A stretch of 64,000 bases of DNA from Bacteroidales bacterium (GCA_023231005.1 JALNWG010000014.1:9007-73006); one strand, 5' to 3'; counted from the stretch's first letter, positions 184-26,561 are shown. Made by a program: numbers and translations. The notes: generated by a model from the sequence alone, not told the origin.

Positions 184-492
184 TTATTTATCGAGTTCCA
201 GCAATTTGTTTTCGTGTTCAATGATGAGCAGTTGCATCTCAATTAACTGACCGATGGTAGCAACAGGATGTTTAACCGCATATTTCCCAATGACTTTCAA
301 TTCGATATCGAGGTCATACTTTTTTTTGAAAATTTCAATGAGTTCAAGAAACATCAATGAATCACCATCGAGATCTTTGATGATGCTCGTTTTATCATTG
401 ATCCGGGAAATATCTACTTCACATTCCTCAGCAAAAAAACCATAAACAACCTCCCTGACCTCGTTCCTTATACTTTCAGTAATTTTTGCCAT
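184..492 (-). CDS. acyl carrier protein
   Basis: Phosphopantetheine attachment motif LDGDSLMFLELIE. The ORF-track start at 519 is GTG. The first ATG (MAKITE) is at 492, 24 nt after the upstream KS stop. Confidence 0.8.
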   Translation of the reverse strand: MAKITESIRNEVREVVYGFFAEECEVDISRINDKTSIIKDLDGDSLMFLELIEIFKKKYDLDIELKVIGKYAVKHPVATIGQLIEMQLLIIEHENKLLELDK

Positions 493-515
493 GATGCTAT
501 TTTTTTGCAAAAATA

Positions 516-1727
516 TCACTTTTTTAATACAATGATTGCATTATGTCCACCAAAACCAAAGGAGTTTGAAAGAGCGACATTTATTTCTTTTTTCCGCGAC
601 TGATTCGGAATGTAGTCAAGATCAAGGTCAGGGTCGGGGATGCGGTAATTGATGGTCGGGGGTAAAATTCCATTTTCAAGGGCGAGGATGGTGATGATGG
701 CTTCAATGGCTCCAGCAGCTCCGATGGTATGGCCCAGCATAGATTTCGACGAAGATATGGGGATGTGATAAGCCAGTTCTCCAAACTCTTTTTTGATTGC
801 CATGGTTTCAAAGCGGTCATTCAACTCCGTAGAAGTTCCATGTGCATTGATATACCCGACTTCCTCTTTTTGTATTCCGGAATTTTCTAGTGCTTTCCGG
901 ATTGAAAAAGCCATTCCTTCGCCATCATTCATGGGAGCCATAATGTTGTATCCTTCGCTTGTAATGGAACAACCTGCCATTTCGCAATGAATATGAGCCT
1001 TTCTGGCTAATGCATGTTCTTTGGATTCGAGAATAATGGTACCCGCTCCCTCTCCGATAACAAAACCATCCCGGTCTTTGGAGAAGGGTTTACTGGCTTG
1101 TTCTGGTGGATCATTGGCAACCGAAAGCGCATAAAGCGCATTGAATCCCCGGATCTCCTCCGGGTTAATAATTGAATCGGCTCCACCCACGATCATCACA
1201 TCCGATTGTCCACTTTTAATCATCTGATAGCCTAATGATATAGCATAAGCAGAGGAAGCGCAGGCAGTATTCACGGCAAAGTTGGGACCGGTTAACTGAT
1301 ATTCCATCGATAACCAGGCGGGCATGGCGTTGGTCATGCTTTTAAATACAGTATTCTGTGTGGTTGTGTTTTTCTCTACACTGGAATTTCCGGTATTAAC
1401 AACACCCATGATCACCCCGCATTTAGAACGGTCAGTGTCATCAAAATTCATCCCTGAATTGGCGACTGCCATTTTTGCTGCAGTCATACACATCCTGGTA
1501 ACCCTTGTCATTTGACTTGCTGCCCTTTTTTTTATCCAGATCTTCGACAGTGCCTCAAATTCATCAGGAACCTGAGCGGCAATCTGAGTGGCGCAATTGG
1601 TAGGATCAAAAAGGGTAATCCTTTTGACCCCGCTTTTTCCGTTGATGATACTTTTCCAGTTTTCCTCTATAGTTAAACCCAGAGATGTAATTAAACTCAT
1701 CCCCGTTATTACAACTTCTCTTGCCAT
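516..1727 (-). CDS. beta-ketoacyl-ACP synthase (FabF/FabB-like)
   Basis: Active-site Cys in NTACASSAYAI, plus HGTST and GHTIGAAG motifs and C-terminal SNSFGFGGHN. ATG start checked. Confidence 0.9.
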   Translation of the reverse strand: MAREVVITGMSLITSLGLTIEENWKSIINGKSGVKRITLFDPTNCATQIAAQVPDEFEALSKIWIKKRAASQMTRVTRMCMTAAKMAVANSGMNFDDTDRSKCGVIMGVVNTGNSSVEKNTTTQNTVFKSMTNAMPAWLSMEYQLTGPNFAVNTACASSAYAISLGYQMIKSGQSDVMIVGGADSIINPEEIRGFNALYALSVANDPPEQASKPFSKDRDGFVIGEGAGTIILESKEHALARKAHIHCEMAGCSITSEGYNIMAPMNDGEGMAFSIRKALENSGIQKEEVGYINAHGTSTELNDRFETMAIKKEFGELAYHIPISSSKSMLGHTIGAAGAIEAIITILALENGILPPTINYRIPDPDLDLDYIPNQSRKKEINVALSNSFGFGGHNAIIVLKK

Positions 1728-1739: not shown

Positions 1740-2120
1740 TTACTTCAAGGAATTCACCCATTTACCGACCATTTCCACTTCTGCTTTTGTGGGAATCAAA
1801 TCGGGATTATTTTTCTTCCAGCTTTTTGGTGGCATCGATTCTTTTGAAAGAACTTTAAAAATGGTATTTGCTTTATCACTTTGTTTTTGAATAGTAAGAT
1901 CGCCCCATTTGGAGAAGTTCACTTTTCCGCGAGCCAATGCACTCCCCTTATCCGAATGACAATCCATACAGGCTCTCTGAACAAATTTCATCATATTATC
2001 GGGTAAAGCTGCCGATGTTGTATTCGTTGTTTTCTGCCCGGAAGCCAATATGGTATTGACATTTATCAACAAAAAAAATGCAATGAAAACTGTTGAAACC
2101 AGGATTATTGATTTTCTCAT
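1740..2120 (-). CDS. secreted haem-binding-domain protein (c-type CxxCH)
   Basis: N-terminal hydrophobic signal sequence. CMDCHS (CxxCH) is followed by GKVNFSKW and MPP, the pattern of Haem_bd-type domains. Confidence 0.6.
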   Translation of the reverse strand: MRKSIILVSTVFIAFFLLINVNTILASGQKTTNTTSAALPDNMMKFVQRACMDCHSDKGSALARGKVNFSKWGDLTIQKQSDKANTIFKVLSKESMPPKSWKKNNPDLIPTKAEVEMVGKWVNSLK

Positions 2121-2285: not shown

Positions 2286-3290
2286 CTATCCGAAATACTC
2301 GTGCAAAGCATCATGAATCTGCTCTTGGGAAAGTCCCGATTGAGATGAATAACGTTTGACAGAGGAAAAAAATACATGCTGAAGAGACAGATAAATTTCT
2401 GTGGTTTCAGAAATCTTATCTTCAACAAACTCTTCAATTGGATATATGTAAAAACCTGATTTAGATTTTATTCCAAGTTTTCCTGAATTCACAAGTTCTC
2501 TTAGTTCTGATATGAGTTCTTTATACGATGACGGATCCGGAACAGTTTTGAGATAATTGATAATGGATGCCAGCATGGTATCAATTCCAACGCTGTCGAA
2601 GAAATCAAACACTCCGAATTGAAAAAATCGCGACTTCACCAATTGGTCCATTTGATGGAAAGTACAAGATCCTTGTTTTACGATCCGATAAGCTTCATTC
2701 TGAAAGTCGAGGAAAATTTTATTGAGGATAAAACTGTCTTTTTCCTCGAGCATCAGATATTGACGGTTAATCTGTTTTAAAAATAATTCGACGCTGGCTA
2801 AAGTTTCATCCGAAGTACTTGAAGTACGAATAAATTCGACAATATTTGTCAATTGGATCGGGTAAAAAAAATGTAGTCCGACAAATTTGTCATTTCGTAT
2901 ATTTCCGTTACAAAGTTCAGAAGGATTGATGGAAGAGGAATTTGAAGCGAAGATACAGTTGGGTTGGATGATGTTTTGCAACATGGTAAAAAGAGTGCGT
3001 TTCATCTCCAGATTTTCCGGAATCGCTTCGATGATCAGATCGCAATCGTTCAAATCTGCAGGGATTTGAGTAATTAAAGTCCGGGTAAGTTGACAATGGC
3101 GTGATGAGTTGATAATGCCTGCTTTGAGGGAGCGGTTGATTCGTTTGTAGAATTGTTTCCTCATTTTGGTCACATCGGCATTGTTGCTACATAGCCAGAG
3201 GATTGTAAAATCGAAGGGGAGAAGATAGTAAAAAAGATCGCTTCCCATTTTTCCTTCGCCGATAATCCCTATGGTTGTGACGTTTCCCAT
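2286..3290 (-). CDS. 3-hydroxyacyl-CoA dehydrogenase family protein
   Basis: Rossmann motif IGIIGEGKMGSD directly after the ATG at 3290. The start was trimmed from the ORF-track 3398 because the upstream gene stops at 3292. Confidence 0.75.
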   Translation of the reverse strand: MGNVTTIGIIGEGKMGSDLFYYLLPFDFTILWLCSNNADVTKMRKQFYKRINRSLKAGIINSSRHCQLTRTLITQIPADLNDCDLIIEAIPENLEMKRTLFTMLQNIIQPNCIFASNSSSINPSELCNGNIRNDKFVGLHFFYPIQLTNIVEFIRTSSTSDETLASVELFLKQINRQYLMLEEKDSFILNKIFLDFQNEAYRIVKQGSCTFHQMDQLVKSRFFQFGVFDFFDSVGIDTMLASIINYLKTVPDPSSYKELISELRELVNSGKLGIKSKSGFYIYPIEEFVEDKISETTEIYLSLQHVFFSSVKRYSSQSGLSQEQIHDALHEYFG

Positions 3291-3291
3291 C

Positions 3292-4827
3292 TCAACTGGA
3301 ATTTGATTGTTTCCATGGACCTTTATCCTGTGCGATGACAATTTTACGATATTCTTCCATATTTCGTACATGTTCCTGGATGTGGCGGTGATATCCAAGC
3401 ATGGTGAGCATGAACGACAATCCTTTATCGATGGCGATTCGTTTCGTTCTGATCAATCCGAAAATGTAAAAGAATAGCGCTTTACGGTCTTTATCAGTTG
3501 TAAGAATATATTCTTTGAAGGTGATCCAGGATAAACGGGCTTTCATATATATGGAAATTTCACCTCCGGGTCGCGTAAAGGCTCCATTACTTAATAATGC
3601 TTCTCCCTTTTTCCGGATGGTATCGAAGGAATAAAGTCTCTCAATGGTTTGCATGTATTTGTCGAAAATTTCAATTTGCGACATATTCATATAATGCAAG
3701 GTAGGGAAATGGCCAACCCCAAGTTCAGGATCGCAGGAGAGGAGCCGGCCAGCTTCCTGGAATTTTTTATAAACTTCCGTTCCCGGAGGAGCATTGAGCA
3801 AATGCAGGTTTACATTGGGCAGATGATGTTTCATGGTAAAATCGAAGATCCGGTCAAATTCATCCAGACCGTCGTTATCAAAACCAACTACAAAGCTGGC
3901 ATTGATATGAATACCGGCAGCATGAATTTTATTGATGGCCTCTTCGTATATTTTCCCGCCCCGGTTATGATGTTTATGAGATTCGTCAAGGCTTTCCGGA
4001 TTCAGGGATTCAAAACCCACCAGGATATTGAAACATCCGGCATCAGCCATCAATCGTAACAATTCATCATCGGTGGCAACATCGAGACTGCACATACATC
4101 CCCAAGATATTTTCAATGGGATGATGGCCTTCATCAGTTCTTTTGCATACGTTTTATTGATGGTGAGGTTATCATCGACAAAGAAAAAGTACTTTGCCGG
4201 AGCCGATTTTATTTCTTCCACAACATTATCAATATCACGATAACGCATTTTACGGCCAAAGGTCTTTGATACAAGACAAAAGTCGCAATTGAAAGGGCAT
4301 CCCCGTGAGACCTGTATGGCCACCTGGAAAATCCGCTTCATATTAACCAGATCCCAACGAGGCGGATTTTGGGTTTTATAAGGAATAAATTCAGAAGATT
4401 CGTAAACCGGCTGTAATCGTCCATTTTCAAAATCCGCCAGACATTTTTCCCATTTTCCTTCTGCTTCGCCTGCGATCACGCAATCACCGTGTTTCAAGGC
4501 ATCTTCCTGTTTGAAGGATGCATAAGGTCCGCCATAAACCACTTTGGCACCCATGGCACGATAGGTATCGCCCAATTCGAAGGCTCGTTTTACCGTGGCT
4601 GCCAGCGTGGTTATTCCAACAATATCCGGCTTTTCATTTTTTGGGAGATGTTCGATCTCTTCATCAAATATTCGGATGTCGTAATTCCCAGGAGTGAGCG
4701 CTGCTATGGTTGGCAATGCCAGAGGTACCATAAATCGTTTCTTCCCGAACATTTTCGCCAGTTCGCTATGAGCTGGATAATTGATGAACCGTTGTTTCGG
4801 GCTGATCAGAAAGAGCTTATACTTCAT
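3292..4827 (-). CDS. B12-binding-domain radical SAM protein (class B)
   Basis: CxxxCxxC in SRGCPFNCDFC. N-terminal flavodoxin-like B12-binding-type region (PDIVGITT..GAKVVYGG). Confidence 0.8.
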   Translation of the reverse strand: MKYKLFLISPKQRFINYPAHSELAKMFGKKRFMVPLALPTIAALTPGNYDIRIFDEEIEHLPKNEKPDIVGITTLAATVKRAFELGDTYRAMGAKVVYGGPYASFKQEDALKHGDCVIAGEAEGKWEKCLADFENGRLQPVYESSEFIPYKTQNPPRWDLVNMKRIFQVAIQVSRGCPFNCDFCLVSKTFGRKMRYRDIDNVVEEIKSAPAKYFFFVDDNLTINKTYAKELMKAIIPLKISWGCMCSLDVATDDELLRLMADAGCFNILVGFESLNPESLDESHKHHNRGGKIYEEAINKIHAAGIHINASFVVGFDNDGLDEFDRIFDFTMKHHLPNVNLHLLNAPPGTEVYKKFQEAGRLLSCDPELGVGHFPTLHYMNMSQIEIFDKYMQTIERLYSFDTIRKKGEALLSNGAFTRPGGEISIYMKARLSWITFKEYILTTDKDRKALFFYIFGLIRTKRIAIDKGLSFMLTMLGYHRHIQEHVRNMEEYRKIVIAQDKGPWKQSNSS

Positions 4828-5947
4828 AGTATTTTAAAATATATCCGGCTTGCATAAATTTACTTACCTCTGTAACGAAGCTGAGAATTACATCGCCATG
4901 ATTCAATTTTTCTTCTTTACAGATTCTGTCAAGACAAAGAAAGGCCATTGGGGGGCCAATATATCCCATGGAAGCCATTTTGGAATAGAGTGTTTGTCGG
5001 GCAATTCCCAATTCCACACACTCATCCATAACCAATTCTGCAATATGTTTAGAAGGGAAGTTTACCTGGAAGAATCTTACTGCATTCAGATTGAACGGAT
5101 AAATATCAAACATTCTCCGAATTCCCTTATAAAAAACGGAACCACCTGGTTCATGAAAGTTCGCGCTTAATTCTTCCTGGAACATTTGGGCCAGATGGTG
5201 AAATCCCTGTTCGAATTCTTCTTTTGGGTTCATCCAATAGGCCGGACGTTTGTTTCCCATGGCCGAAGGTTTGTTTCCACCACAGGATTCGATGTAATTC
5301 GATTCAACGAACAATCCTTTGTTACATTGATCCGATGCTTGTAATACGATAGCAGAAGCTCCATCGCTTAAAAAATACCGTAAAAAGAGTTCTTCCTTCT
5401 TTACTATTGGTTGATTGTAATATTCAGCAATCAATTCGGAGGAGGAAATATTGGAGGAAACCATCAGTACGGTTTTATACCGGCCAAGGCGGATCATATC
5501 AGAACCGATCAACAGGGCTTTGTATGCTGAAGTACAATTAGCATGAACCGAAATTTCTGCACATAGCTCTATTCCCAATGCTTCCTGAATGCGGACACTG
5601 GCCGTAGGCATCTGATCCTGATGAGCGCTTCCATAAACAATCAAGTCAATATCTTCAGGCTTAAGTCCTGCATCTAAAATGGCATCCCTGGATGCTTTTA
5701 CCGACATGGTGATGTTGTCATCCGTAAATTTACGTGTATCCGGGTCCATTGCAAAGTGGTAAAATTTTACATCGAGCAACTCTTTCATCAACCCTTTTAC
5801 CCTTTTCATCCATTTCCGGATTTTTTCAGGGGCATCGCGCAATTCTCCTAAATAGGTATCCACATCCTCGAATGGAATGGGTTTTCCGGGGAGGTAGGAT
5901 CCTGTTCCGGCAATTTTGACAAATATTTCAGAGGTTAATTTTTGCAT
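4817..5947 (-). CDS. FabH-like (KAS III fold) condensing enzyme, atypical triad; DarB-like candidate
   Basis: N-terminal IAGTGSYLP and Cys in HANCTSAY. Where FabH has PHQAN and GNTSAAS, this protein reads FFQVN and MGYIGPP (alignment by eye). Confidence 0.7.
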   Translation of the reverse strand: MQKLTSEIFVKIAGTGSYLPGKPIPFEDVDTYLGELRDAPEKIRKWMKRVKGLMKELLDVKFYHFAMDPDTRKFTDDNITMSVKASRDAILDAGLKPEDIDLIVYGSAHQDQMPTASVRIQEALGIELCAEISVHANCTSAYKALLIGSDMIRLGRYKTVLMVSSNISSSELIAEYYNQPIVKKEELFLRYFLSDGASAIVLQASDQCNKGLFVESNYIESCGGNKPSAMGNKRPAYWMNPKEEFEQGFHHLAQMFQEELSANFHEPGGSVFYKGIRRMFDIYPFNLNAVRFFQVNFPSKHIAELVMDECVELGIARQTLYSKMASMGYIGPPMAFLCLDRICKEEKLNHGDVILSFVTEVSKFMQAGYILKYYEV

Positions 5948-6581
5948 TCAATGGATTTAAATACTTCTGGAGACAGATGCGGCGGTCAGTTCCGGTTATA
6001 TTTAACGGTAACGTTTTGGCAAAACGCGCAGCAAATGTTAAAAGTTCATGTTTTGGAACGATGGCATCAATCAGTCCGAATTCGAATGCTTCCCGTGCTG
6101 AAAAAGTATTTCCATGCAGAATAAGCTCCAATGCTTTGGCTTTGCCCACCAATTTGGAAAACCTTTGGACACCTCCAATCCCTGGCATGAGATTATAAGT
6201 TGTTTCCGGAAAACCGAAAACTGCTTCATTGGAACAAATTCTGAAATGACAAAAAAGGGTCAACTCCATTGCAGAACCCAGACATACACCTCGGATGGCG
6301 GATATTGCAGGAATACCCAGTTGTTCAAGGTGAAGAAAAGCATTATAATGCTGAAGCATCACTTCTTCATCAACATGATCCAACAGTTCATCGAGATTTG
6401 CCCCTGAGGAAAAATGTCTTCCATTAGCATGAATAATCAAAGCTTTCAATCCGTCAGTATGCTCAACAATCTGAATGGCTTCCTGAAAATCGCGGAAAAA
6501 CTCAAGGGACATTGTGTTCGCGGGAGGTTGATTGATGGCCAACCAGCCTATATTATCTTCGATTCGCCATTGCAATGTCAT
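5928..6581 (-). CDS. enoyl-CoA hydratase/isomerase (crotonase) family protein
   Basis: Crotonase-type layout: INQPPANTM, GRHFSSGANL, and GxG oxyanion region GVCLGSAMEL. Confidence 0.8.
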   Translation of the reverse strand: MTLQWRIEDNIGWLAINQPPANTMSLEFFRDFQEAIQIVEHTDGLKALIIHANGRHFSSGANLDELLDHVDEEVMLQHYNAFLHLEQLGIPAISAIRGVCLGSAMELTLFCHFRICSNEAVFGFPETTYNLMPGIGGVQRFSKLVGKAKALELILHGNTFSAREAFEFGLIDAIVPKHELLTFAARFAKTLPLNITGTDRRICLQKYLNPLNAKINL

Positions 6582-6584
6582 CGG

Positions 6585-7337
6585 TTATTCTCCCTCCATT
6601 TTACGTCTTTCAGCCTCGTTAATGGCAAGCATACAAAAAAGCCGAGTTTCATCTTTCATTGCCTCAGTGGGGGATAAGGTAGCGGCATTTTTCAGGGATT
6701 TCATGATGGCATTAATCACCTTAACAGGACGATCGATGGTCATTTTCCGGGCTAACGAAAATGCATATTCAAATGCATGATCCTTTTGGGCCAGAAAATC
6801 GACAAGCCCCATACTCTTAGCATCTGAAGCATTCACAATATCTCCTCCCAAAATAACCCGAGTTGCTTGGGAAAGACCAATGATTTCAGGAAGACGAATG
6901 GTGCCTCCAAGACCCGGCATCAGGTTGGAATTAATTTCGGGAAATGCCAACAGCGCATTTTCTGATGCAACCCGGATATGACAAGCCAGAGCGATTTCAA
7001 GTCCGCCACCAAAACAAACGCGGTTGATCGCTGCAATGGAGGGAATCAACAGGTCGTTGATGGCTTCTAACAATTCTTTCCCGGCGTTCATTCCAAAGGC
7101 AAGTCGCTCCGGATCCTGTGTTTGATGAAAAATTTCCTTTAAGTTTCCACCGGAAGAAAAGTTTTTGCCTTCTCCTGTGATGATCAAAGCTTTCACCGAT
7201 TCATCCTGAATCCATTCATGAAACTGCTCAAGCGGAATAAATTCCGGTTGTTCCAGCTTGTTTGAAGGCGGATTCCCAAGGGAAATTATTCCGATATCGT
7301 TAATAATTTCAAATGATATATTGGGTACATGGGTCAC
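6585..7337 (-). CDS. enoyl-CoA hydratase/isomerase (crotonase) family protein
   Basis: ITGEGKNFSSGGNL and CFGGGLEIALACH crotonase motifs. The start codon is GTG, and no in-frame ATG occurs for ~80 codons. Confidence 0.8.
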   Translation of the reverse strand: MTHVPNISFEIINDIGIISLGNPPSNKLEQPEFIPLEQFHEWIQDESVKALIITGEGKNFSSGGNLKEIFHQTQDPERLAFGMNAGKELLEAINDLLIPSIAAINRVCFGGGLEIALACHIRVASENALLAFPEINSNLMPGLGGTIRLPEIIGLSQATRVILGGDIVNASDAKSMGLVDFLAQKDHAFEYAFSLARKMTIDRPVKVINAIMKSLKNAATLSPTEAMKDETRLFCMLAINEAERRKMEGE

Positions 7338-7346: not shown

Positions 7347-7739
7347 CTATTTTAATCTCTTCAATAGACCATCGGGAATATCACGTGCCATTTTTTCCTT
7401 ATCAACAAAAATAAGTTTGGTGGTAGCCCGTGCAGCAGGTAGGTTAGTCGATTTTTTAATAATTCGTTGCTGGAAAATTAAATATGGTTTTTCAGGGAAG
7501 CAAGAAGATTCGACGATCAATTCCTCAAATAATTTCACTTCCCGCTGATACCGGATATGGATATCGGTAACCACCAACGATAATTCGCTTTCAGTTAAAG
7601 AAGGCATCAAATCCAGTGCTTTGAAATATTCCCAACGCGCATGTTCAAAATAGTTGAGATATACAGCATTGTTGATATGGTTGTAGGAATCCAACTCATA
7701 TCCACGGACAGTCAGCAATAATGTGTGTTTTTCAGCCAT
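7347..7739 (-). CDS. acyl-CoA/acyl-ACP thioesterase (4HBT hotdog fold)
   Basis: VRGYELDSYNHINNAVYLNYFEHAR is typical of YbgC/4HBT thioesterases. Confidence 0.75.
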   Translation of the reverse strand: MAEKHTLLLTVRGYELDSYNHINNAVYLNYFEHARWEYFKALDLMPSLTESELSLVVTDIHIRYQREVKLFEELIVESSCFPEKPYLIFQQRIIKKSTNLPAARATTKLIFVDKEKMARDIPDGLLKRLK

Positions 7740-8125
7740 CAGACAGCTTTTTCAAATTTACCCTTGAATTTCAAAAAAATCGATTCTGATTTTCCTAAGG
7801 TTGCCGTAATTGAGTACCGGTTTTCAGATAACGGTTTGATAACCAAGTCAACATCCAGAAGAGGATTTTCATGCGGAATGATCATCGATAAAAACTTGAT
7901 ATTGTCTGACTCAGTCAAGCGCAATGAAGTGTTCAAGGCCTTTTCCGCTAATTCTCTTACCATCTGTACCTGGCATACTCCGGGAACAATCGGATTCCCC
8001 GGGAAATGACCCTGATAAATAGCGTGATTTTGGTTGAGCTTTGTTGAAACTTTATATTTTTGTTGATCTTCGGAAGTTTCCGTATTTGTAAAAGACTGAA
8101 TATCAAAAAAGTTACCCAAAAGCAT
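7739..8125 (-). CDS. 3-hydroxyacyl-ACP dehydratase (FabZ/FabA-like hotdog)
   Basis: HFPGNPIVPGV motif. ATGA overlap with the downstream thioesterase. Confidence 0.75.
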   Translation of the reverse strand: MLLGNFFDIQSFTNTETSEDQQKYKVSTKLNQNHAIYQGHFPGNPIVPGVCQVQMVRELAEKALNTSLRLTESDNIKFLSMIIPHENPLLDVDLVIKPLSENRYSITATLGKSESIFLKFKGKFEKAV

Positions 8126-8169
8126 AATCCTGATTAATTAATGTTTTAATTATTGGGTAAAAATACAGC

Positions 8170-8814
8170 TTATTTACTCAATAATTGCAACGATTGTTGC
8201 ATTCCGATGAACTGATTCAGGATGATGATCTTAGTTGGGAAACCTTTTGAATAGGACGAAAGATTGATTTTTGCCGCATCCGCAAAATTCGATTTTCCGG
8301 CAATGGATAAAAGAGTATCCCTGGTGGCGGAATAGGTTTTCCAAAATTTTATTTTTCCTGCATCTCCTGAAATGATGATCTGTCTGGATTTTTCCTGCTG
8401 ATATGTTGTGCTTGTTATTTTCGGATAGCAACTGAGCAACAACCTGTAATCTGTTTCAAGAATTTTTATCAGAGCTTTGTTATATAATGGTTCAAAACAA
8501 GAGATCACCTTAAAGCTGTCGGGTTTCATCTCCAAATCGAAGTAGGTCATCCCAAACTCATTGGCAAAAACCAATCGGTATACTTCAGGTACAGAATCCA
8601 TCTTTTTAATTAACATTAATCCGCTTAAATGGTGCTTCTTAATGTCAAGTGTGGCTGTATACAGTGCCTTGTTGAAATTTCCAAGTAGATTAGCCGGAAC
8701 ATCTATATGGGAAATATCGCCGGAAGTAGAGCGGGTAAGGTTTTTCGGTTTAATGGAAACGCAACCAGCCATCAACAGGAACCCGAGTAAACTAACGAAG
8801 AATAAATTTTTCAT
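8170..8814 (-). CDS. lipoprotein of unknown function
   Basis: Lipobox in MKNLFFVSLLGFLLMAGC. Start trimmed from 8880 to the ATG at 8814. Confidence 0.6.
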   Translation of the reverse strand: MKNLFFVSLLGFLLMAGCVSIKPKNLTRSTSGDISHIDVPANLLGNFNKALYTATLDIKKHHLSGLMLIKKMDSVPEVYRLVFANEFGMTYFDLEMKPDSFKVISCFEPLYNKALIKILETDYRLLLSCYPKITSTTYQQEKSRQIIISGDAGKIKFWKTYSATRDTLLSIAGKSNFADAAKINLSSYSKGFPTKIIILNQFIGMQQSLQLLSK

Positions 8815-9427
8815 TGGCAATCGGCTGATTGAGTTTTTTATTTTTAAAGTTGATTTTTGTAACATCGCCACCGGGTTCATTCATTTCAATTCCATTGACA
8901 GAAAAATCCTTTCGGTCAAAAAAAATAATGATTTCAGAAAGGGAGGTTTTTAATTTCTGTGACAAAGGTTTTAGTTTGACAATATAATCCTGTGGTTGTT
9001 CAAAAAATGAAACCTGAAAATTTGTTTCATCCTGTAATAAAGTACCCTGTATGCTTCCGATGATGATCCGGTTTATTTCGAGAAAGACCTTATTTGACTG
9101 AAGATTGAATTGATTCACTTTTTTATCATCTTTGATTAAGATATGATCGTTGTTAATGATAATGAGGTAGGAAAAGGGGTGAAGATATTCCCATCGAAGC
9201 ATTTTTTCCTTTTTAAAAAGGAACTTACCCTCCGACCGAATCGATTCGTTCAACATATTCATTGATTTCACCTGTACAAAATCGCTGGTGATGGTTTGTG
9301 TTTTTTGTGAAGCATCTCTAACACTTTCTTTTAATGAAGCGATGGCAGCAGGTTTAAGCGGTTTTTGCTGAGAAAAAGCACAAAAAGTAAGAATACAAAA
9401 AACAGATAGCAATCCGTATCTACGCAT
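8792..9427 (-). CDS. LolA-like outer-membrane lipoprotein carrier family protein
   Basis: Signal peptide, ~210 aa. QKTQTITSDFVQ and MLRWEY segments are typical of LolA-like proteins in aryl-polyene clusters. Confidence 0.6.
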   Translation of the reverse strand: MRRYGLLSVFCILTFCAFSQQKPLKPAAIASLKESVRDASQKTQTITSDFVQVKSMNMLNESIRSEGKFLFKKEKMLRWEYLHPFSYLIIINNDHILIKDDKKVNQFNLQSNKVFLEINRIIIGSIQGTLLQDETNFQVSFFEQPQDYIVKLKPLSQKLKTSLSEIIIFFDRKDFSVNGIEMNEPGGDVTKINFKNKKLNQPIANEKFILR

Positions 9428-10220
9428 AGGCTTTCATTTTTAATAACTGATCGAGTGGAACAATCATAAATCCTTTTCTATTGATATTCTGAATTAGTGC
9501 CTCCAGATTTTGTTGAATGAAAGTAGTATGGTCATGCACCAGAATAATTCCTCCTGGTTTTAAAAGGGAGATGATTTTATTCATGGTTTTGGAGGAGTTG
9601 AGGTTCAGGGTATCCATCGACCATATATTCCAGCAAATAACCTCCCAATGCATTTTTCTAAGGGTTTTACTCACCATGGGATTGATCACGCCATAAGGTG
9701 GGCGAAAAAAAAGCGGGGATTTTCCAGTTACATCTCTTATTAGCTGATCGGTTTTCAACAATTCAGCTTTCATTTTATAAGCGGGAATAAAATCGAACCA
9801 TTTGGAATGGCTGAACGAATGATTTCCAATAATATGACCTTCTTCATGGATTCTGGTTGCCAGTTCCATATTGGCTTGGATATTTTTACCAGGACAAAAA
9901 AAAGTCGCTTTCAGGTTGTATTTTTTTAAAATTTCCAGAATAAACGGAGTCTTTTCAGGGTTAGGGCCGTCGTCAAAAGTGAGCGAAACCCAAGGTTGGT
10001 CAGTATTCCCACTGCTTATTACAGGATAATGAAAATTAGAACGCGGGACAAAGGCCATGGCAACGGAAACCCCAAAATAGATGACAAATACGAGAAAATA
10101 GCATAAAAGCAGATGGGAACAAAGAAAGCAATCAGGTTGATGACAAGCAAAGAAACTCCAGAGGTTTAAGACGAGAAGCAGAATAAAGAAGATGACAGTG
10201 AACCGCTTAAAAGTAAACAT
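9420..10220 (-). CDS. polysaccharide deacetylase (NodB-type) with N-terminal membrane anchor
   Basis: TFDDGP and HSFSH NodB motifs. Two N-terminal hydrophobic helices. Confidence 0.8.
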   Translation of the reverse strand: MFTFKRFTVIFFILLLVLNLWSFFACHQPDCFLCSHLLLCYFLVFVIYFGVSVAMAFVPRSNFHYPVISSGNTDQPWVSLTFDDGPNPEKTPFILEILKKYNLKATFFCPGKNIQANMELATRIHEEGHIIGNHSFSHSKWFDFIPAYKMKAELLKTDQLIRDVTGKSPLFFRPPYGVINPMVSKTLRKMHWEVICWNIWSMDTLNLNSSKTMNKIISLLKPGGIILVHDHTTFIQQNLEALIQNINRKGFMIVPLDQLLKMKAYA

Positions 10221-11312
10221 CTACGGGTGACTAATTAAGATAAACGAATGATTTATTGCCTGATAGTGATTATAGATAAGAATATGTCTGATTTTTTCAG
10301 GGACATGGTTAAGACGCACCGGAGTTGGAATGTTTTGGGTCTTCATGATCATCGATGCAAGCCAGAGTGCAAAAGAAGAAACAGTTTGATATTCTCCGCA
10401 AAGGTGTTTAAAAAAACCGAGGGAGGTATTTTGAAAACATTTTTCAACCAGTTCATGGTAAACCCGGTCTTTCATTGAATCACCATTCAATCCCAGCAAT
10501 AAAAGATCAACATTACGTTCTGATAGATTGTGTAATTCAAGGAAGGCTTTTACTTTTTCGCTGAGTTCACAGGTTGAGGATGGGTTAAGAACCATGAGTA
10601 CACCTTTTAGCTCTGCATAAGTCCCACTGTTTTTAGTGTTCTCTAAAAAAACAAAAGAAGCACCTTCGCCGGCTATGGATCCACGCTGCCGGTCAAGCAA
10701 CAGATCCTGTGTATTGATTGGTTTTCGTTTCCAATGTCCCAATCTTGAGGTGATGGCAAAAGAGTTCTGAGTAAGTTCATCAGTTCCACCAACTAATGCA
10801 TTTGAGAATTCCTCCATATTAATTTGTGTGATGGCATCGAGCAGTGCGCTTTCGAAAGAGAATCCACGATGAACAAATGTAAAATTATGACCATGGCACT
10901 TGAGCAGAAGGGCAATTTGTCCAGCTACCGTATTGTGAGTCGATTGAATAAAGGAGGTAGGAGTAAGGAATTCCTCCTTATTACGGATCATGTTGGTTAA
11001 GAATTTTTCAGTGTCTTCTATACATCCCAGGCCGGTTCCCGTAACAATCGCATCCGGTGAAAGAAAGGTTCCATCCGGGTTGCATTGTTTGGCATCCTGC
11101 AAACAAATTTTTGCCGCAGTTATACCCATTTTTATGATTCGCCCCATGCGTCGGAAAAGATCCGAAGGAATGTACTGTTTAAAACCCGGATCAATACATT
11201 TAAGCTGATTGGTTTCAAAAAAGAATGGTTCTTGGAGAAAATGGCCCGAATCGGTTGTTTTTTGTGGAGAAACATTTCCCAATCCGTTGATGTAAATGTG
11301 TTTGTTTGTCAT
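10221..11312 (-). CDS. Cys-less ketosynthase partner (chain-length-factor-like)
   Basis: Thiolase-fold length. STHNTVAGQ replaces the STAC(S/A)S active-site segment. Paralog of 12579-13640. Confidence 0.7.
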   Translation of the reverse strand: MTNKHIYINGLGNVSPQKTTDSGHFLQEPFFFETNQLKCIDPGFKQYIPSDLFRRMGRIIKMGITAAKICLQDAKQCNPDGTFLSPDAIVTGTGLGCIEDTEKFLTNMIRNKEEFLTPTSFIQSTHNTVAGQIALLLKCHGHNFTFVHRGFSFESALLDAITQINMEEFSNALVGGTDELTQNSFAITSRLGHWKRKPINTQDLLLDRQRGSIAGEGASFVFLENTKNSGTYAELKGVLMVLNPSSTCELSEKVKAFLELHNLSERNVDLLLLGLNGDSMKDRVYHELVEKCFQNTSLGFFKHLCGEYQTVSSFALWLASMIMKTQNIPTPVRLNHVPEKIRHILIYNHYQAINHSFILISHP

Positions 11313-11318
11313 TGTATC

Positions 11319-12524
11319 TCAGACTTTGGAAAGGATCACACTGGAGTTATTTCCTCCGAAACCAAATGAGTTTGATAATATATGGCGAAGTTCGATATTC
11401 CTGATTGTTTTTCGGACCGGTTGAATTTTCAACTCTTTCATGGGAGTGGAAAAATTAAGATTCGGGAAAATTACGCGGTTTCTGATAGAAAGAATCGAGA
11501 TTACTGCTTCCACAGCGCCGGCTGCACCGAGTGTATGGCCGGTAAATGCTTTGGTAGAACTGAATGGAGGTACCTGATCCCCAAATATTCTTTCCATGGC
11601 TATCCCTTCAGAAAGATCGTTGTTTTCTGTGCCTGTTCCATGAACATTGATATAATCGATTTCCGCTGGTTTAAGTCCGCTCATTTTCAGCGCTTTCGAC
11701 ATGGCAAGAAAAGCACCAGTACCATCCGGTGAAGAGGCTGTTTGGTGAAAGGCATCGTTGGCATTTCCGTATCCCAATATTTCAGCAAGGATTTTCTTTT
11801 GTTCTTTATGAACGATTTCTTCGGATTCCAGGACAAGGAAGGCAGCGCCTTCGCCCAAAGTCAAACCGGCGCGATGTTCATCAAAGGGGTGACAGCCATT
11901 TTTATCAAGAATCATTAAGGTATTGAAACCATTTAAGGTAAATCGAGTTAAAGCGTCATTTCCGCCTACTAAAACCCGATCTAATTGCCCCGATTTGATC
12001 AGATTTGAGCCGAACATGATGGCGTTTACCGAAGAGGAACATGCCGTGCTAATGGTCGTTACAAAATCGGTGATATGGAGATTTGAAGCAATCCGTTCCG
12101 TACTATCTGCACAATCATGATTTACGATGTTGATCATCCTGCCTTTTTGAGGGGACTCCAGAAATTCAGCATAGAAATTTTCGCTTAGGTCCATTCCTCC
12201 AACGGTTGTGGCAGAAACCAAACCGGTTCTGTGTTTTTGAATATCGGTGATTCCGGACGATCCAAGCGCTTCTTTTGCAGCTTTGATTCCCAACAATGCA
12301 GTTCTTGTAAGGTTTTTTGCGCCCTTGTGTCCAATTTCATCAAGCAATTGGTTGGTAGTCAGTTTAACCTCGGCCAGGGGCAGGATCCCTTTGTGTATTG
12401 ATGAGAAAAGTGTAATCTCTCCGATACCCGATTTTTCTGCAAGCAGTGATGTCAGTGTTTCGTCCACATTGTTCCCAATGGCACAAACAACTCCAATTCC
12501 CGTGACATAAACCCGTTTTGACAT
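11319..12524 (-). CDS. beta-ketoacyl-ACP synthase
   Basis: ISTACSSSVNAI active-site Cys, HGTGT, GHTLGAAG, SNSFGFGGNN. Confidence 0.9.
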   Translation of the reverse strand: MSKRVYVTGIGVVCAIGNNVDETLTSLLAEKSGIGEITLFSSIHKGILPLAEVKLTTNQLLDEIGHKGAKNLTRTALLGIKAAKEALGSSGITDIQKHRTGLVSATTVGGMDLSENFYAEFLESPQKGRMINIVNHDCADSTERIASNLHITDFVTTISTACSSSVNAIMFGSNLIKSGQLDRVLVGGNDALTRFTLNGFNTLMILDKNGCHPFDEHRAGLTLGEGAAFLVLESEEIVHKEQKKILAEILGYGNANDAFHQTASSPDGTGAFLAMSKALKMSGLKPAEIDYINVHGTGTENNDLSEGIAMERIFGDQVPPFSSTKAFTGHTLGAAGAVEAVISILSIRNRVIFPNLNFSTPMKELKIQPVRKTIRNIELRHILSNSFGFGGNNSSVILSKV

Positions 12525-12578
12525 TTGAGAAAAAATAAATGAAGCGGCAAAATTAACAGAAATAATACAATGGAAAAA

Positions 12579-13640
12579 TCAGGATATTGCCCGGACCAAC
12601 ATCAGTGCGTGATTTATATTTCGGAGTTGATTATAAATAAGGATATTTTTCCATGAGGAAGGTTGTAAATCATTCAGTTGCATGATTGGTGGATATTCTC
12701 TTCTTTTCAGGATGTTAGCGGCAGCGTAAAGTGCAAATCCGGTAGCTGTATAATATTCACCGCAAAGATGCTTGAACCAGGCTTGAGGAACTCCCGGAAA
12801 GAAATCATTAGACATCTGATAATAAACCGGATCATATTGAATATCACCGTTCACTCCTAAAATCAAAAGATCAATATTGGGACGGGATAAATTATTCTTT
12901 TCCAGGAAACGCTCAATAACATCAGGAATGGAAGTTGTTTGTTCAATATCGAAGAGGGTCAGTACATCCAGAAGTTCAGCATAACTTTCAGCGGTTTTTT
13001 CTTTTCCAAGAGTAAAAAAGGCAGCTCCTTCTCCAGCCAGGGCACCAGGGGTCTGATACTCCCTCACTTTGAGATTGTTTACGGGTTCCTTTTTCCATTG
13101 GCCAACTCTTCGGATAATTTGAAGATGGTTAAATGTCATTTCATCAATCCCACCCACCAGGATGTTCTGAGCCATTTCTTCTTCCATCAGCATCAATGCA
13201 TCGAGTAATCCATTTTCGAAAGAAAAATTACGATGGACATACGTGGAATTATAATTATGACATTTCAGTTGAATGGCAATCTGAGAGCTGATTGTATTGT
13301 ATGTAGATTGAATAAACGGAGTGGGATTCAGAAATTTTTCATCTTTCGAAATCTCTCCTAAAATTTTTTCAGTTTCCTCAACGCTTCCAAGCCCAGTTCC
13401 CGTAATGATTGCATCCGGCATATCACACCCAGCATCCATCAAACTGATTTTGGCTGAAGCGATCCCCATTTTGATGAGTCGGCTCATCCGTCTTGACTGG
13501 ATGGGATCGATGTATTTTTTATAGACCGGCTCGATGCATTTCAAAAAATCAGCCTGATATTCCATAATTTCCGTCAGAAACTCATGAGTGTCGACAGTTT
13601 TTTGTGGAGAGATAAGTCCGATTCCGTTGATATAAGGCAT
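12579..13640 (-). CDS. Cys-less ketosynthase partner (chain-length-factor-like)
   Basis: STYNTISSQ at the active-site position. Clear paralog of 10221-11312 (shared INGxGxxSPQKT and RRMxRxIKMGI). Confidence 0.7.
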   Translation of the reverse strand: MPYINGIGLISPQKTVDTHEFLTEIMEYQADFLKCIEPVYKKYIDPIQSRRMSRLIKMGIASAKISLMDAGCDMPDAIITGTGLGSVEETEKILGEISKDEKFLNPTPFIQSTYNTISSQIAIQLKCHNYNSTYVHRNFSFENGLLDALMLMEEEMAQNILVGGIDEMTFNHLQIIRRVGQWKKEPVNNLKVREYQTPGALAGEGAAFFTLGKEKTAESYAELLDVLTLFDIEQTTSIPDVIERFLEKNNLSRPNIDLLILGVNGDIQYDPVYYQMSNDFFPGVPQAWFKHLCGEYYTATGFALYAAANILKRREYPPIMQLNDLQPSSWKNILIYNQLRNINHALMLVRAIS

Positions 13641-13649
13641 GAAAAGTGA

Positions 13650-14858
13650 TTAAATGTTTGATGTTTTTTTAAAGATTAACGAGGTGTCGTTTCCGCCGAA
13701 ACCAAATGAATTCGACATGACGACATTAAGGTTAGCATTATTGATTAAGGTCTTCACGGGAGAAAAATGGAGTTCATTGATGGGTACTTCAAAATTCAGA
13801 TTTGGCCAGATCACCCGTTGCTGAATACAAAGTATCGATAGAATGGCTTCTATTGAGCCGGCGGCGCTGGTGGTATGTCCGGTAAAAGGTTTTGTTGAAC
13901 TGATTTTCGGAATTGAAGACCCGAATAAAGTTTCAATGGCCCGTCCTTCCGAAAGGTCATTATTATCGGTACCAGTTCCGTGGGCATTGATATAATCGAT
14001 TGATTCCGGCTTCATTCCGCATAGATCAAGCGCTTTTTTCATTGCCAGAAGTGCGCCGATACCATCGGGCGAAGAGGCTGTTTGATGGAATGCTTCACAT
14101 GCATTTCCCCATCCTGCAAGTTCACAAATGGGTTGGTTCCCGGTCTTTTTCAAAGCCGATTCCGATTCCAATACCAAATAGGCAGCACCTTCTCCTAAAT
14201 TGATCCCGGCTCTATGACGATCAAATGGTTTACAAGGTGATTTATCGAGGATTTTAAGGGCATTAAATCCATTCAGATGAAATTTTGTCAGTGCTTCACA
14301 TCCTCCGGCAATAACGCGATCGAGATGCCCTGTTTGGATCATTCGGGCTCCCAGCATCAATGCATTGGCAGCAGAAGAGCAAGCAGTGCTTATCGTTGTA
14401 ATAAAACCTTTAATCTTCAGAATCGAGGCAATTTTTTCAGTACTGTCGGCACAGTCATAAACATCGATGTATGAATTGCGGGAATCGTTGGTTAAAAAAT
14501 CATGATAGTATAAATCACAACGATCCATTCCTCCAACTGTGGTTGCAGATATTAGTCCGGTTTCTATTCCGGGATTTTCTAAAACACGGGCATGATCGTA
14601 GGCTTCCTTCGCTGCAATAATTCCCAATAATGCATTTCGGGAATAAGCGTCTGAAGGATTGATGTGAGCCAGATCGAAAAGCCCATCCAAATCAAAAGGG
14701 ACTTCTCCAACAAGGAGTTCATCTTTTAATATGGTCTTGATATAATGAATTTTTCCAAGGCCTGATTTAGTGGAAAGTAAGGAAGCAAGGTTCTCCTGAA
14801 GGTTGTTTCCCAGACATGAAATGATTCCTGTACCTGTAATAAAAATCCGCTGGGACAT
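13650..14858 (-). CDS. beta-ketoacyl-ACP synthase
   Basis: ISTACSSAANAL, HGTGT, GHTTSAAG, SNSFGFGGND. Paralog of 11319-12524. Confidence 0.9.
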   Translation of the reverse strand: MSQRIFITGTGIISCLGNNLQENLASLLSTKSGLGKIHYIKTILKDELLVGEVPFDLDGLFDLAHINPSDAYSRNALLGIIAAKEAYDHARVLENPGIETGLISATTVGGMDRCDLYYHDFLTNDSRNSYIDVYDCADSTEKIASILKIKGFITTISTACSSAANALMLGARMIQTGHLDRVIAGGCEALTKFHLNGFNALKILDKSPCKPFDRHRAGINLGEGAAYLVLESESALKKTGNQPICELAGWGNACEAFHQTASSPDGIGALLAMKKALDLCGMKPESIDYINAHGTGTDNNDLSEGRAIETLFGSSIPKISSTKPFTGHTTSAAGSIEAILSILCIQQRVIWPNLNFEVPINELHFSPVKTLINNANLNVVMSNSFGFGGNDTSLIFKKTSNI

Positions 14859-14864
14859 TCAGGT

Positions 14865-15119
14865 TTATTTTTTATGCTCGGTAATGTATTCGGCCATTGT
14901 CCGGATGGAATAAAATATTTTTTTCCCATCTTTCGGATCCTCAATCTTTATACCGTAGTTTTTTTCTAACAATACAATCAATTCCAAGGCATCAATCGAA
15001 TCCAATCCCAATCCTTCACCAAACAGAGGTGAATCGGGGTTTATATCATCTACTGTAATATCTTCGAGATTCAATTGTTCAATGACTTCTTTCTTCAATT
15101 TATTGATTAATTCTTCCAT
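14865..15119 (-). CDS. acyl carrier protein
   Basis: LGLDSIDALELI motif. The ORF-track start at 15143 is TTG. The first ATG (MEELINK) is at 15119, 10 nt after the upstream stop. Confidence 0.85.
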   Translation of the reverse strand: MEELINKLKKEVIEQLNLEDITVDDINPDSPLFGEGLGLDSIDALELIVLLEKNYGIKIEDPKDGKKIFYSIRTMAEYITEHKK

Positions 15120-15129
15120 AGTAGATTGT

Positions 15130-15780
15130 TCAGTTATGTTCAAATATTAAGTCCAGGTTAATTTGGTTAAAAGGCAATGGTCGAAATTTTGATATTTCGT
15201 CCGACATCGGTAAACCAGATTTCTCTATAAGCGTAATCAATGTTCTGTATTTACTCCCAAGTACTTCCACCCATCCGCACAAACATGCTTCCATCCCGCA
15301 ATTCTCAAATAACTGCCGGGTATAGTTATAAAGGAGTGTACTGTCGAAAGTTTCTGAAATCAGAAAAACATTTTCTCCTTTGATTTTATTTTTAATACAA
15401 ATCTCTCCAACCACAATATTCGGAAGGGTATATACAAATACTGAAGGGCTTGGAAAGTATTTCAATCGGTCTTTTATAGTATCGTAGTGAGCGATATCTG
15501 TATCCAGACTTGAACTTGAATTAGCCAAAACCACTCCAACCGAATCATTGCGGTATCCCGAGATTGTATTTTGTTTTAAAATCAAATCTGCTGCAAGAAA
15601 TCCAAGTTTACTGATGGAATCCATTTTGTAAAACTTGGGATAATTGATTTGTTCTTGTTTGTAGACTGATTTAATAAAGTCTGCAAAAGTAAGAAAATTT
15701 TCCTGATAATAGATTAGCCGGTCATTGACAATGACTTTATTTCCATGAATTTGGCAATATGCGGATATAATCAGGTCCAT
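15130..15780 (-). CDS. short KS-associated partner protein (truncated thiolase-like) of aryl-polyene clusters
   Basis: ~216 aa with no active-site Cys motif, immediately after a KS. An alternative ATG at 15810 would overlap the KS by 29 nt. Confidence 0.5.
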   Translation of the reverse strand: MDLIISAYCQIHGNKVIVNDRLIYYQENFLTFADFIKSVYKQEQINYPKFYKMDSISKLGFLAADLILKQNTISGYRNDSVGVVLANSSSSLDTDIAHYDTIKDRLKYFPSPSVFVYTLPNIVVGEICIKNKIKGENVFLISETFDSTLLYNYTRQLFENCGMEACLCGWVEVLGSKYRTLITLIEKSGLPMSDEISKFRPLPFNQINLDLIFEHN

Positions 15781-15781
15781 A

Positions 15782-16954: not shown

Positions 16955-16957
16955 AGT

Positions 16958-17383
16958 TCATTCATCAATAATGCCCCAATGCTTTTTCCATCCCGTATAA
17001 AATTCGGGAGCAGTAAGTAATAATTCTCCGGTCTGGGTCAGGAATACCTGGATGGAACTACCGGTAGCCATGATCTCCATATCTGATTTCCGGAAAACGG
17101 TATATTCGAAAACAATTTTGGCTGAATCAGTAGGGATATATCGGGTTTCAATAATGGCGATATCGCCATATTGTAAAGGTCTTTTGAAATCACAGGAAAT
17201 TCTAACCAACGGAATCATAACCTGGTGTTTATAAACTTCGAGATACCCCAGATCATACTTGATCCCAAAGGATTCACGTCCATCTTCAAAGTATTTAATG
17301 TAATTTCCATGCCAAACAATCCGCATGGAATCAACCTCTGAAAACCTTACACTAATTTCTTTTCTATCGGTCAATTCCATCAT
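16958..17383 (-). CDS. thioesterase (4HBT hotdog fold)
   Basis: VRFSEVDSMRIVWHGNYIKYFEDGRE is typical of hotdog thioesterases. Confidence 0.7.
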   Translation of the reverse strand: MMELTDRKEISVRFSEVDSMRIVWHGNYIKYFEDGRESFGIKYDLGYLEVYKHQVMIPLVRISCDFKRPLQYGDIAIIETRYIPTDSAKIVFEYTVFRKSDMEIMATGSSIQVFLTQTGELLLTAPEFYTGWKKHWGIIDE

Positions 17384-18684: not shown

Positions 18685-18695
18685 AGAATCTTACT

Positions 18696-20468: not shown

Positions 20469-20482
20469 AGAATTTGGTTGAA

Positions 20483-20878: not shown

Positions 20879-20926
20879 TTCTGTTTGTTTTTTGCAAGAA
20901 AACCTTTCGGCGCGAAAGTAGAAATA

Positions 20927-21928: not shown

Positions 21929-21951
21929 CTAGTAGTTTTCTGTATGTATGT

Positions 21952-22335: not shown

Positions 22336-22340
22336 ATAGA

Positions 22341-24091: not shown

Positions 24092-24092
24092 A

Positions 24093-25013: not shown

Positions 25014-25019
25014 TAATTA

Positions 25020-25268: not shown

Positions 25269-25320
25269 CCTTGTTGGAATTACGAGGCAAAAATAAGATT
25301 TTTTTTCAAAGAAACCAGTA

Positions 25321-26535: not shown

Positions 26536-26561
26536 AATTTAAAATTAGCGAAATGGTGAAA

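Follow-up and report, generated by a model that had tools for sequence, protein, structure and literature searches.

Gene organisation of the locus

The 64,000-nucleotide (nt) stretch of DNA analysed here, referred to throughout as the window, comes from a Bacteroidales bacterium (GCA_023231005.1 JALNWG010000014.1:9007-73006). It carries an operon in which a homologue of the condensing enzymes with the β-ketoacyl synthase III (KAS III) fold is accompanied by a thioesterase and two crotonases, and it is the relationship, active site and possible function of this KAS III-fold protein that are considered below. Coordinates count from the first letter of the window, and the operon genes, lying between 184 and 8125, are all on the minus strand. 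They are given in the order of transcription.

7739..8125, minus strand: FabZ/ApeI-like dehydratase, upstream in the operon
7347..7739, minus strand: YbgC/4HBT-type hotdog acyl-CoA thioesterase, 130 amino acids (aa), the upstream part of the conserved core
6585..7337, minus strand: crotonase ECH-a, 250 aa (PF00378)
5928..6581, minus strand: crotonase ECH-b, 217 aa, with a short C-terminus (PF00378)
4817..5947, minus strand: KAS III-fold condensing-enzyme homologue, 376 aa (Pfam/NCBIfam)
3292..4827, minus strand: class B (B12-binding) radical SAM enzyme, 511 aa
2286..3290, minus strand: 3-hydroxyacyl-CoA dehydrogenase (Pfam 3HCDH_N and 3HCDH); 2286-3398 according to the caller of open reading frames (ORFs)
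1740..2120, minus strand: small secreted haem-binding-domain protein (PF14376; CMDCH, ie CxxCH), between the dehydrogenase and FabF genes
516..1727, minus strand: FabF-type elongating ketosynthase with an intact active-site Cys (ACASS)
184..519, minus strand: acyl carrier protein (ACP), downstream in the operon, 183 nt from the left edge of the window

A preliminary description of this locus, made by eye, had placed two crotonase-family enzymes upstream of the KAS III-fold gene and a B12-radical SAM enzyme and a 3-hydroxyacyl-CoA dehydrogenase downstream, with overlaps of 20 and 11 nt at the two junctions. The four neighbours were recovered with Pfam and NCBIfam, and both overlaps were found when the sequence at the junctions was inspected nucleotide by nucleotide: the stop codon of ECH-b (5930-5928) lies inside the KAS III-fold gene, which opens at ATG 5947, and the stop codon of the latter (4819-4817) lies inside the radical SAM gene, which opens at ATG 4827. 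For the dehydrogenase, ATG 3290 is a likelier start than the TTG at 3398 chosen by the caller. ATG 3290 stands one base past the radical SAM stop codon at 3294-3292 (TGAgATG) and begins MGNVTTIGIIGEGKMG, where the Rossmann motif of the dehydrogenase starts; the TTG would put the gene 107 nt into the radical SAM gene. Both crotonases retain both catalytic Glu residues (GGGLEI and FPEI in ECH-a, GSAMEL and FPET in ECH-b), and the closest PDB matches of both are true enoyl-CoA hydratases. The radical SAM enzyme is only distantly HpnJ-like (105 bits) and BchE-like (94 bits), far under the respective cut-offs.

Active-site residues

The KAS III-fold protein was aligned with MAFFT to Escherichia coli FabH (a sequence which matches the FabH PDB chains) and to four controls, P0257, P0210, P0224 and P0231, each of which passes the curated DarB or StlD/DarB cut-off. 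HMMER profile alignments to the StlD and FabH PDB chains provided a second route. The protein contains the motifs HANCTSAY, FFQVNFPSK and MGYIGPP, and the two routes agree on the fate of each member of the catalytic triad. FabH Cys112 corresponds to Cys138 in HANCTSAY, and DarB and StlD also have Cys at this position. FabH His244 (VPHQAN) corresponds to Asn296 (FQVNFP), where DarB/StlD have His in LPH[IYF]SS (LPHYSS in StlD), and FabH Asn274 (HGNTSAAS) corresponds to Tyr329 (MGYIGPP), where DarB/StlD have Asn in GN[VIT]GS (KGNTGSA in StlD). The earlier view that the nucleophile is kept and that the His and Asn required for malonyl decarboxylation are missing is therefore upheld, and no intact Cys-His-Asn triad appears against either FabH or DarB. 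The register proposed by eye was three residues off at FFQVN, since it paired the His with Phe293; this leaves the conclusion as it was, because no alignment register brings a His to the position of FabH His244.

The same pattern runs through the 46 closest family members (alignment A3). Cys138, His250, His251 and Tyr329 are present in all 46, and position 296 is never His: it is mostly Asn, and otherwise Ser, Asp, Thr or Gly. The constant signature of these members reads Cys138, Arg190, Asp195, His250, His251, Gln254, Asn/Ser296, Tyr329, Glu360, Ser362 and Lys363, and DarB/StlD have Cys, Arg, Asp, Phe, Asn, Gln, His, Asn, Glu, x and Arg in the same columns. Comparison of the columns shows that Arg190 (in FLRW/Y), Gln254 and Glu360 are common to the two groups, and that positions 250, 251, 296 and 329 are the four which have been swapped in correlated fashion. 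In the MAFFT alignment Glu360-Val-Ser-Lys stands in for the Phe304-Gly-Gly-Gly loop of FabH, the bearer of the oxyanion-hole glycine, and His250/His251 fall on FabH Ile203/His204, beside Leu205. In FabH structures Leu205 lines the acyl pocket.

One divergent database member of the family, P0153, keeps His250-His251 and Glu360 but carries Asp at the position of the nucleophilic Cys138 and His at that of Tyr329; P0153 may represent a paralogue that is inactive or acts in another way.

Relationship to characterised condensing enzymes

The AlphaFold2 model of the protein is confident, with a predicted local distance difference test score (pLDDT) of 93.9 and a predicted TM score (pTM) of 0.93. In a Foldseek search of the PDB, chains of StlD (5GK0/5GK2) came top with TM scores of 0.84-0.85 and E around 1e-33, and were followed by AbyA1 and then by FabH, CorB, PqsD, MxnB and OleA (TM 0.70-0.78). 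The family profile scored 155 bits against StlD over its full length, 153 against AbyA1 and 119-131 against FabH. In a neighbour-joining distance tree (40 sequences, 351 columns, 100 bootstraps) the DarB clade was recovered in 100/100 replicates, the family together with one divergent member in 86/100, and the two joined in 97/100, so that the KAS III-fold protein is sister to the DarB clade and outside it. The best NCBIfam match is the StlD/DarB model NF005293, at 98.4 bits and under its cut-off of 450; the DarB model NF053539 gives 81.9 bits, below its cut-off of 550. The protein thus belongs to an uncharacterised sister family of DarB/StlD and is not itself a DarB. The preliminary description had cast it as a DarB-type enzyme, ie the FabH-like enzyme of flexirubin and dialkylresorcinol pathways which joins a β-ketoacyl and a 2-enoyl thioester without decarboxylation, by Michael addition and Claisen cyclisation. 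What survives of that proposal is the kinship, as the protein is nearer to DarB/StlD than to initiation FabH by NCBIfam, Foldseek and the tree; membership of DarB does not.

Nor does the loss of His and Asn point to DarB, as had been supposed. True DarB and StlD retain Cys-His-Asn, and CorB and MxnB also harbour it; mutagenesis of CorB showed that all three residues are needed for activity (PMC5506619). Thus, the clamp is kept by every characterised non-decarboxylative condensing enzyme of the KAS III fold that was checked, StlD and DarB by alignment and CorB and MxnB from the same paper. With StlD (5GK0) the family shares the nucleophilic Cys, a similar length and similar inserts, together with derived motifs: FLR(W/Y)xLSDGA (here FLRYFLSDGA), Gln254 and Glu360-x-Ser-(Lys/Arg) (here TEVSK). 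The setting beside DarG, DarH and ABC genes in a flexirubin-type cluster is also shared. The differences are a sequence identity of only about 25%, Asn/Ser for His302 and Tyr for Asn of the StlD triad Cys126-His302-Asn, and the invariant His250-His251 where DarB has Phe/Asn-type residues. There is no DarA/StlC aromatase adjoining the family gene, which is instead coupled to two crotonases and a thioesterase, absent from the one canonical dar locus examined (L081). PDB 5GK2 is the H302A mutant of StlD and reads LPAYSS at the His site.

The head-to-head, non-decarboxylative enzymes CorB, MxnB and OleA have the thiolase/KAS III fold in common with the family, at TM scores of 0.73-0.78, and for the family such chemistry is only proposed here; CorB and MxnB differ from it in possessing the His and Asn. 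AbyA1 (PDB 5BY7), a tetronate-condensing enzyme, is the second-best match by structure and profile, carries a Glu-Ser-Ser-Lys-Trp motif near its C-terminus and, with related database sequences, has likewise lost the canonical His (Pro in AbyA1). The AbyA1-like proteins retain the Asn (GN), however, lack the His-His motif, fall outside the clade of DarB plus the family, and belong to tetronate pathways. E. coli FabH has the same fold and the Cys at the same position, and the KAS III-fold protein differs from it in additional N-terminal and mid-domain inserts.

These comparisons bear on two other explanations. An ordinary FabH, whose decarboxylative condensation initiates the synthesis of fatty acids or polyketides, would account for the fold and for weak FabH model matches of 70-72 bits. 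It is scarcely credible, since those scores are far under the cut-offs (71.9 against 292 bits for TIGR00747, 69.8 against 249 for NF006829), the equivalents of His244 and Asn274 are replaced family-wide, the Phe-Gly-Gly-Gly loop has been exchanged for Glu-x-Ser-Lys, and the protein groups in the tree with DarB/StlD and not with FabH-like sequences. The second is a β-branching cassette of the 3-hydroxy-3-methylglutaryl (HMG)-CoA synthase type, in which the enzyme would add an acetyl unit to a β-keto intermediate, the crotonases would dehydrate and decarboxylate the adduct, and FabF and ACP would form the donor pair. The HMG-CoA synthase cassettes of bacillaene and curacin consist of an ACP, a ketosynthase, a thiolase-fold enzyme and two different crotonase-fold proteins; the gene set in the window mirrors them, and the trio of enzyme and two crotonases is invariant. 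We nevertheless rejected this cassette as very improbable because of the hydratase residues of both crotonases, whose best matches are true enoyl-CoA hydratases and not ECH1/ECH2, and because FabF has Cys (ACASS) rather than the Ser of a decarboxylating KS0. In addition, the HMG-CoA synthase models give 26-34 bits against cut-offs of 244-360, and the canonical His, which HMG-CoA synthases keep, is absent.

Family distribution and conserved gene neighbourhood

A word-indexed search at E<=0.001 collected 1515 proteins. The best 120 of the 1515 are 70-77% identical, and the named ones among them are labelled merely 'KAS III family'. The family is compact, as only 34 clusters fell below 1e-30 when representatives at 50% identity were searched exhaustively with HMMER. 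Gene neighbourhoods were compared at 80 loci, one genome per species, with copies 63-77% identical, synteny being determined by tblastn and clustering of ORFs. The family is therefore found in at least 80 species, nearly all of them known as metagenome-assembled genomes, from Bacteroidales, Marinilabiliales, Prolixibacteraceae, Draconibacterium and Lentimicrobiaceae; a few carriers are Spirochaetota, Chlorobiota or Neomarinimicrobiota. Among the carriers are a metagenome-assembled genome of Draconibacterium orientale (L008) and the complete metagenome-assembled chromosomes OY820914.1 and OY782882.1. Record titles give the habitats as lake water columns, peat, digesters, a sulfidic cave and Guaymas sediment, which look largely anoxic as far as such titles allow.

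At least four architectures can be distinguished.

Type A (the window): aryl-polyene genes upstream; radical SAM, dehydrogenase, haem-binding protein, FabF, ACP and MCAT-like genes downstream
Type B: divergent O-methyltransferase, AcpS-like protein, outer-membrane barrel, dehydrogenase and FabF; no radical SAM
Type C: MMPL/acyltransferase/methyltransferase fusion, phytoene-desaturase-like flavoprotein and two radical SAM genes; no dehydrogenase or FabF nearby
Type D: MCAT, ACP and radical SAM upstream; dehydrogenase, FabF, O-methyltransferase and a ketosynthase/chain-length factor (KS/CLF) pair downstream

Across these architectures the invariant core is the thioesterase, the two crotonases and the KAS III-fold gene. 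In the 81 sequences made up by the 80 loci and the window, ECH-b adjoins the KAS III-fold gene in 80, with ECH-a kept beside ECH-b, and the dehydrogenase is present in 52, being missing near the gene in about one third of loci. The KAS III-fold protein is the most conserved member of the module, with 63-77% identity over the 80 species against 29-62% for ECH-a. A radical SAM gene follows it in many of the related loci, though not in all. An MCAT-like acyltransferase (GYSMG) accompanies the module in 42 related loci and, in those of the window type, directly follows the ACP (eg L009, L010, L012 and L013), so the operon in the window probably continues past the left edge. Beyond the MCAT-like gene, window-type loci often have further radical SAM and glycosyltransferase genes. 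DarG/DarH or ABC genes adjoin the module in other arrangements as well (L030, L039, L053, L061, L067 and L068). The haem-binding protein (1740-2120 in the window) is kept at its place in window-type loci only; it would be a redox partner of a kind unexpected in a lipid operon.

The surrounding flexirubin-type cluster

Upstream of the module the remainder of an aryl-polyene cluster occupies 7739..28871 on the minus strand. Where bit scores are given below, the second figure is the NCBIfam cut-off.

7739..28871, minus strand: rest of the cluster, including FlxA, FlxB, KS/CLF pairs, ACPs, dehydratases, LolA2 and LolB2
7739..28871, minus strand, further genes: polysaccharide deacetylase, ABC exporter, LpxL-like acyltransferase and TIGR04072 B12-radical SAM enzyme
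27321-28871: FlxA tyrosine ammonia-lyase, 832 against 700 bits
Within the cluster: FlxB short-chain dehydrogenase/reductase, 408 against 340 bits
Within the cluster: LolA2, 229 against 125 bits
Within the cluster: LolB2, 84 against 60 bits
19449-20468 and 20927-21928, minus strand: two DarH acyltransferases, 391 and 421 against 300 bits
20483-20878 and 21952-22335, minus strand: two DarG-family proteins, 117 and 111 against 70 bits
22733-24091, minus strand: TIGR04072 'lipid biosynthesis B12-binding/radical SAM protein', 409 against 360 bits
22341-22754: FabZ-like gene, beside the TIGR04072 gene
16958-17383: second YbgC-type thioesterase, 141 aa
25020-25418: third ACP, in an ORF of 132 aa

With FlxA, FlxB, LolA2, LolB2, DarG and DarH all over their cut-offs, the cluster is of the flexirubin type. 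The true start of the third ACP is probably later than that of the ORF, as the ACP domain covers residues 51-127 only. Besides the proteins named, the cluster shares KS/CLF, the ABC exporter and the LpxL-like acyltransferase with the canonical flexirubin and dar clusters of Flavobacterium, Chitinophaga and Azoarcus, and the association of a ketosynthase and ACP with dar genes is as in Azoarcus, where they accompany darAB (PMC3949708). It differs from them in having, within the window, no DarA, canonical DarB or 4-coumarate-CoA ligase, and in the addition of two B12-radical SAM enzymes, the crotonase pair, the dehydrogenase and the haem-binding protein. A further difference is the doubling of DarG and DarH. 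The canonical locus L081, fetched via its true DarB, reads DarA-DarB-DarG-DarH-ABC-ABC with a single DarG/DarH pair. In the window the pair is tandemly duplicated (19449-22335, minus strand) and accompanied by ABC genes, which may mean that two acyl transfers or two acceptors are involved. The FabZ-like and TIGR04072 genes occupy the position where the canonical locus has DarA-DarB.

Searching by tblastn with DarA of L081 gave no match in the 64-kb window (E<0.01) or in the 80 related loci (E<1e-5). The only DarB-like match in the window was the KAS III-fold gene itself, at 25% identity, and a second DarB-like gene was not found in the 80 loci. No 4-coumarate-CoA ligase, other AMP-binding enzyme or acyl-ACP synthetase was present among the scanned ORFs of the window, so that activation of the aryl starter is unaccounted for, despite FlxA. 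Just past the cluster (33381-36621, minus strand) lie genes for a pyruvate formate-lyase-like glycyl radical enzyme and its activase, which fit an anaerobic or facultative host.

Another explanation is that the KAS III-fold protein is a Cys-only acyltransferase, which would move an acyl group on Cys138 between CoA and ACP, or else to a hydroxyl to give an ester in the manner of CerJ. KAS III-like acyltransferases exist. As a transacylase it would link the CoA-type crotonases and dehydrogenase to the ACP-based FabF and KS/CLF. In its favour, Cys is retained where the two residues for decarboxylation and enolate handling are both lost, CoA-type enzymes (crotonases, dehydrogenase, YbgC thioesterase) are mixed with ACP-type ones (FabF, ACP, KS/CLF), and the loading step is left open by the lack of a CoA ligase or acyl-ACP synthetase in the window; CerJ, moreover, has been noted to have a different triad (PMC5506619). 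We consider this unlikely because the family is sister to a clade which forms C-C bonds, the invariant set of His-His, Tyr, Glu and Lys exceeds the needs of simple transacylation, and candidates for esterification are already provided by the two DarH proteins and the LpxL-like acyltransferase.

A thiolase substitute in a β-oxidation-like cycle is a still more doubtful explanation. A crotonase would hydrate an enoyl-CoA and the dehydrogenase would oxidise it, the KAS III-fold protein would then cleave the 3-oxoacyl-CoA (or catalyse the reverse condensation), and the 4HBT-type thioesterase would free the acid; 4-coumaroyl-CoA derived through FlxA could, for example, be shortened to 4-hydroxybenzoate. 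The benzoyl-CoA route of enterocin is a parallel for such side-chain shortening. One operon does contain a hydratase, a dehydrogenase, a thiolase-fold enzyme without the decarboxylation residues and a 4HBT thioesterase, and the tyrosine ammonia-lyase is in the same cluster. The coumaroyl-CoA example is weakened, however, by the lack of a CoA ligase in the window, by the lack of any ammonia-lyase within 10 kb of the module in type B, C and D loci, and by the frequent absence of the dehydrogenase, which roughly one locus in three lacks close to the module. More generally, FabF, ACP and MCAT indicate synthesis rather than breakdown, the relatives of the protein are condensing cyclases, and the thiolase match is about 25 bits only (TIGR01930, 24.7 against a cut-off of 240).

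Proposed function

The explanation we prefer, with a probability of about 0.4, is that the KAS III-fold protein is a non-decarboxylative condensing enzyme which makes the lipid partner of the pigment. A DarB-like role is plausible because the gene lies with DarG, DarH and ABC genes in a flexirubin-type cluster where neither DarA nor a canonical DarB was found. The analysis shows the residue pattern, fold, sister relationship to DarB/StlD, gene neighbourhood and cluster type; we infer the following chemical steps, substrates and product, and with them the roles of the thioesterase and the radical SAM enzyme. An acyl or β-ketoacyl thioester would be loaded on Cys138, and a C-C bond would be formed without malonyl decarboxylation, joining two fatty-acid-derived thioesters. 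Asn296 and Tyr329 could serve as hydrogen-bond donors at the former His and Asn positions, with the family-specific His250/His251 and Glu360 as putative acid/base residues. The substrates would be 2-enoyl, 3-hydroxy and 3-oxo thioesters of the CoA type, interconverted by the two crotonases and, where present, the dehydrogenase, which would thus determine how far the partners are oxidised. The acyl chain would come from FabF and ACP, and the product would be freed by the YbgC-type thioesterase. In the window this product may be a cyclohexanedione- or resorcinol-like lipid partner. DarG/DarH would couple this partner with an aryl-polyene acid to give a pigment of the flexirubin type, and the module as a whole would take over from DarA/DarB.

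Several observations weigh against this proposal. The cut-offs of both DarB/StlD models are missed widely, and DarB-type chemistry may be impossible or altered in a family that has lost the His and Asn which DarB/StlD keep and CorB requires. The orientation of His250/His251 towards the active site is taken from their alignment to FabH residues 203-205 only. As no DarA aromatase was found in the window, the resorcinol end product put forward in the preliminary description is not established, and DarA and DarB could also be located elsewhere in the genome, outside the window. Finally, within 10 kb, type B loci lack aryl-polyene genes, and type C loci have neither dehydrogenase nor FabF nearby, so that the module is not tied to flexirubin. 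The part of the probability not given to this or the other explanations is left to ones not considered here.

Primary metabolism supplies the substrates of the described DarB/StlD systems (PMC6836626; bioRxiv 10.1101/2022.10.20.513026), and a built-in crotonase/dehydrogenase arm would consequently be new. The view put forward at the outset, that a precursor-supply arm within the cluster would be unusual among described loci, is thereby supported; the dehydrogenase, however, is not universal. No published description of the family or of the module was found, in a literature search that did not reach many subscription papers, the StlD structure paper included. The KAS III fold, the kinship to DarB/StlD and the cluster type place the family on known ground; what sets it apart is a set of catalytic residues that its characterised relatives do not show, together with conserved partner genes in a combination so far undescribed. 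A family that lacks His and Asn and yet is strongly constrained in at least 80 species poses an enzymological question, namely which residues take over and which bond is made. It also indicates a possible source of the non-polyene half of flexirubin-type pigments, or of other lipids, where DarA/DarB are not seen, and a recurring four-gene module of thioesterase, two crotonases and KAS III-fold enzyme about which genome-mining rules would say only 'KAS III family'.

The absence of DarA, together with the anaerobic markers in the window (pyruvate formate-lyase and activase), prompts the speculation that a radical SAM enzyme replaces the DarA aromatase under anoxic conditions. Taken further, flexirubin-type clusters of anaerobic Bacteroidota might contain an O2-independent route to the lipid partner, in which a rewired sister of DarB (Cys138/His250-His251/Glu360, without the His-Asn clamp) couples CoA thioesters from its own crotonase/dehydrogenase arm, and a B12-radical SAM enzyme replaces DarA or otherwise modifies the ring. 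We regard so extended a scheme as rather improbable; if true, catalysis on the KAS III fold would have been solved in a new way, and a new class of lipid might result.

Some indication of the product comes from type B loci (L005, L007, L011, L015, L016, L021, L023 and L029), where a phenol-type O-methyltransferase (PF00891 plus a dimerisation domain) is divergent from the thioesterase gene. The presence of this enzyme hints at a hydroxylated, ie phenolic or enolic, product even where aryl-polyene genes are not nearby. In the same loci a gene for an outer-membrane β-barrel stands in the place of the radical SAM gene.

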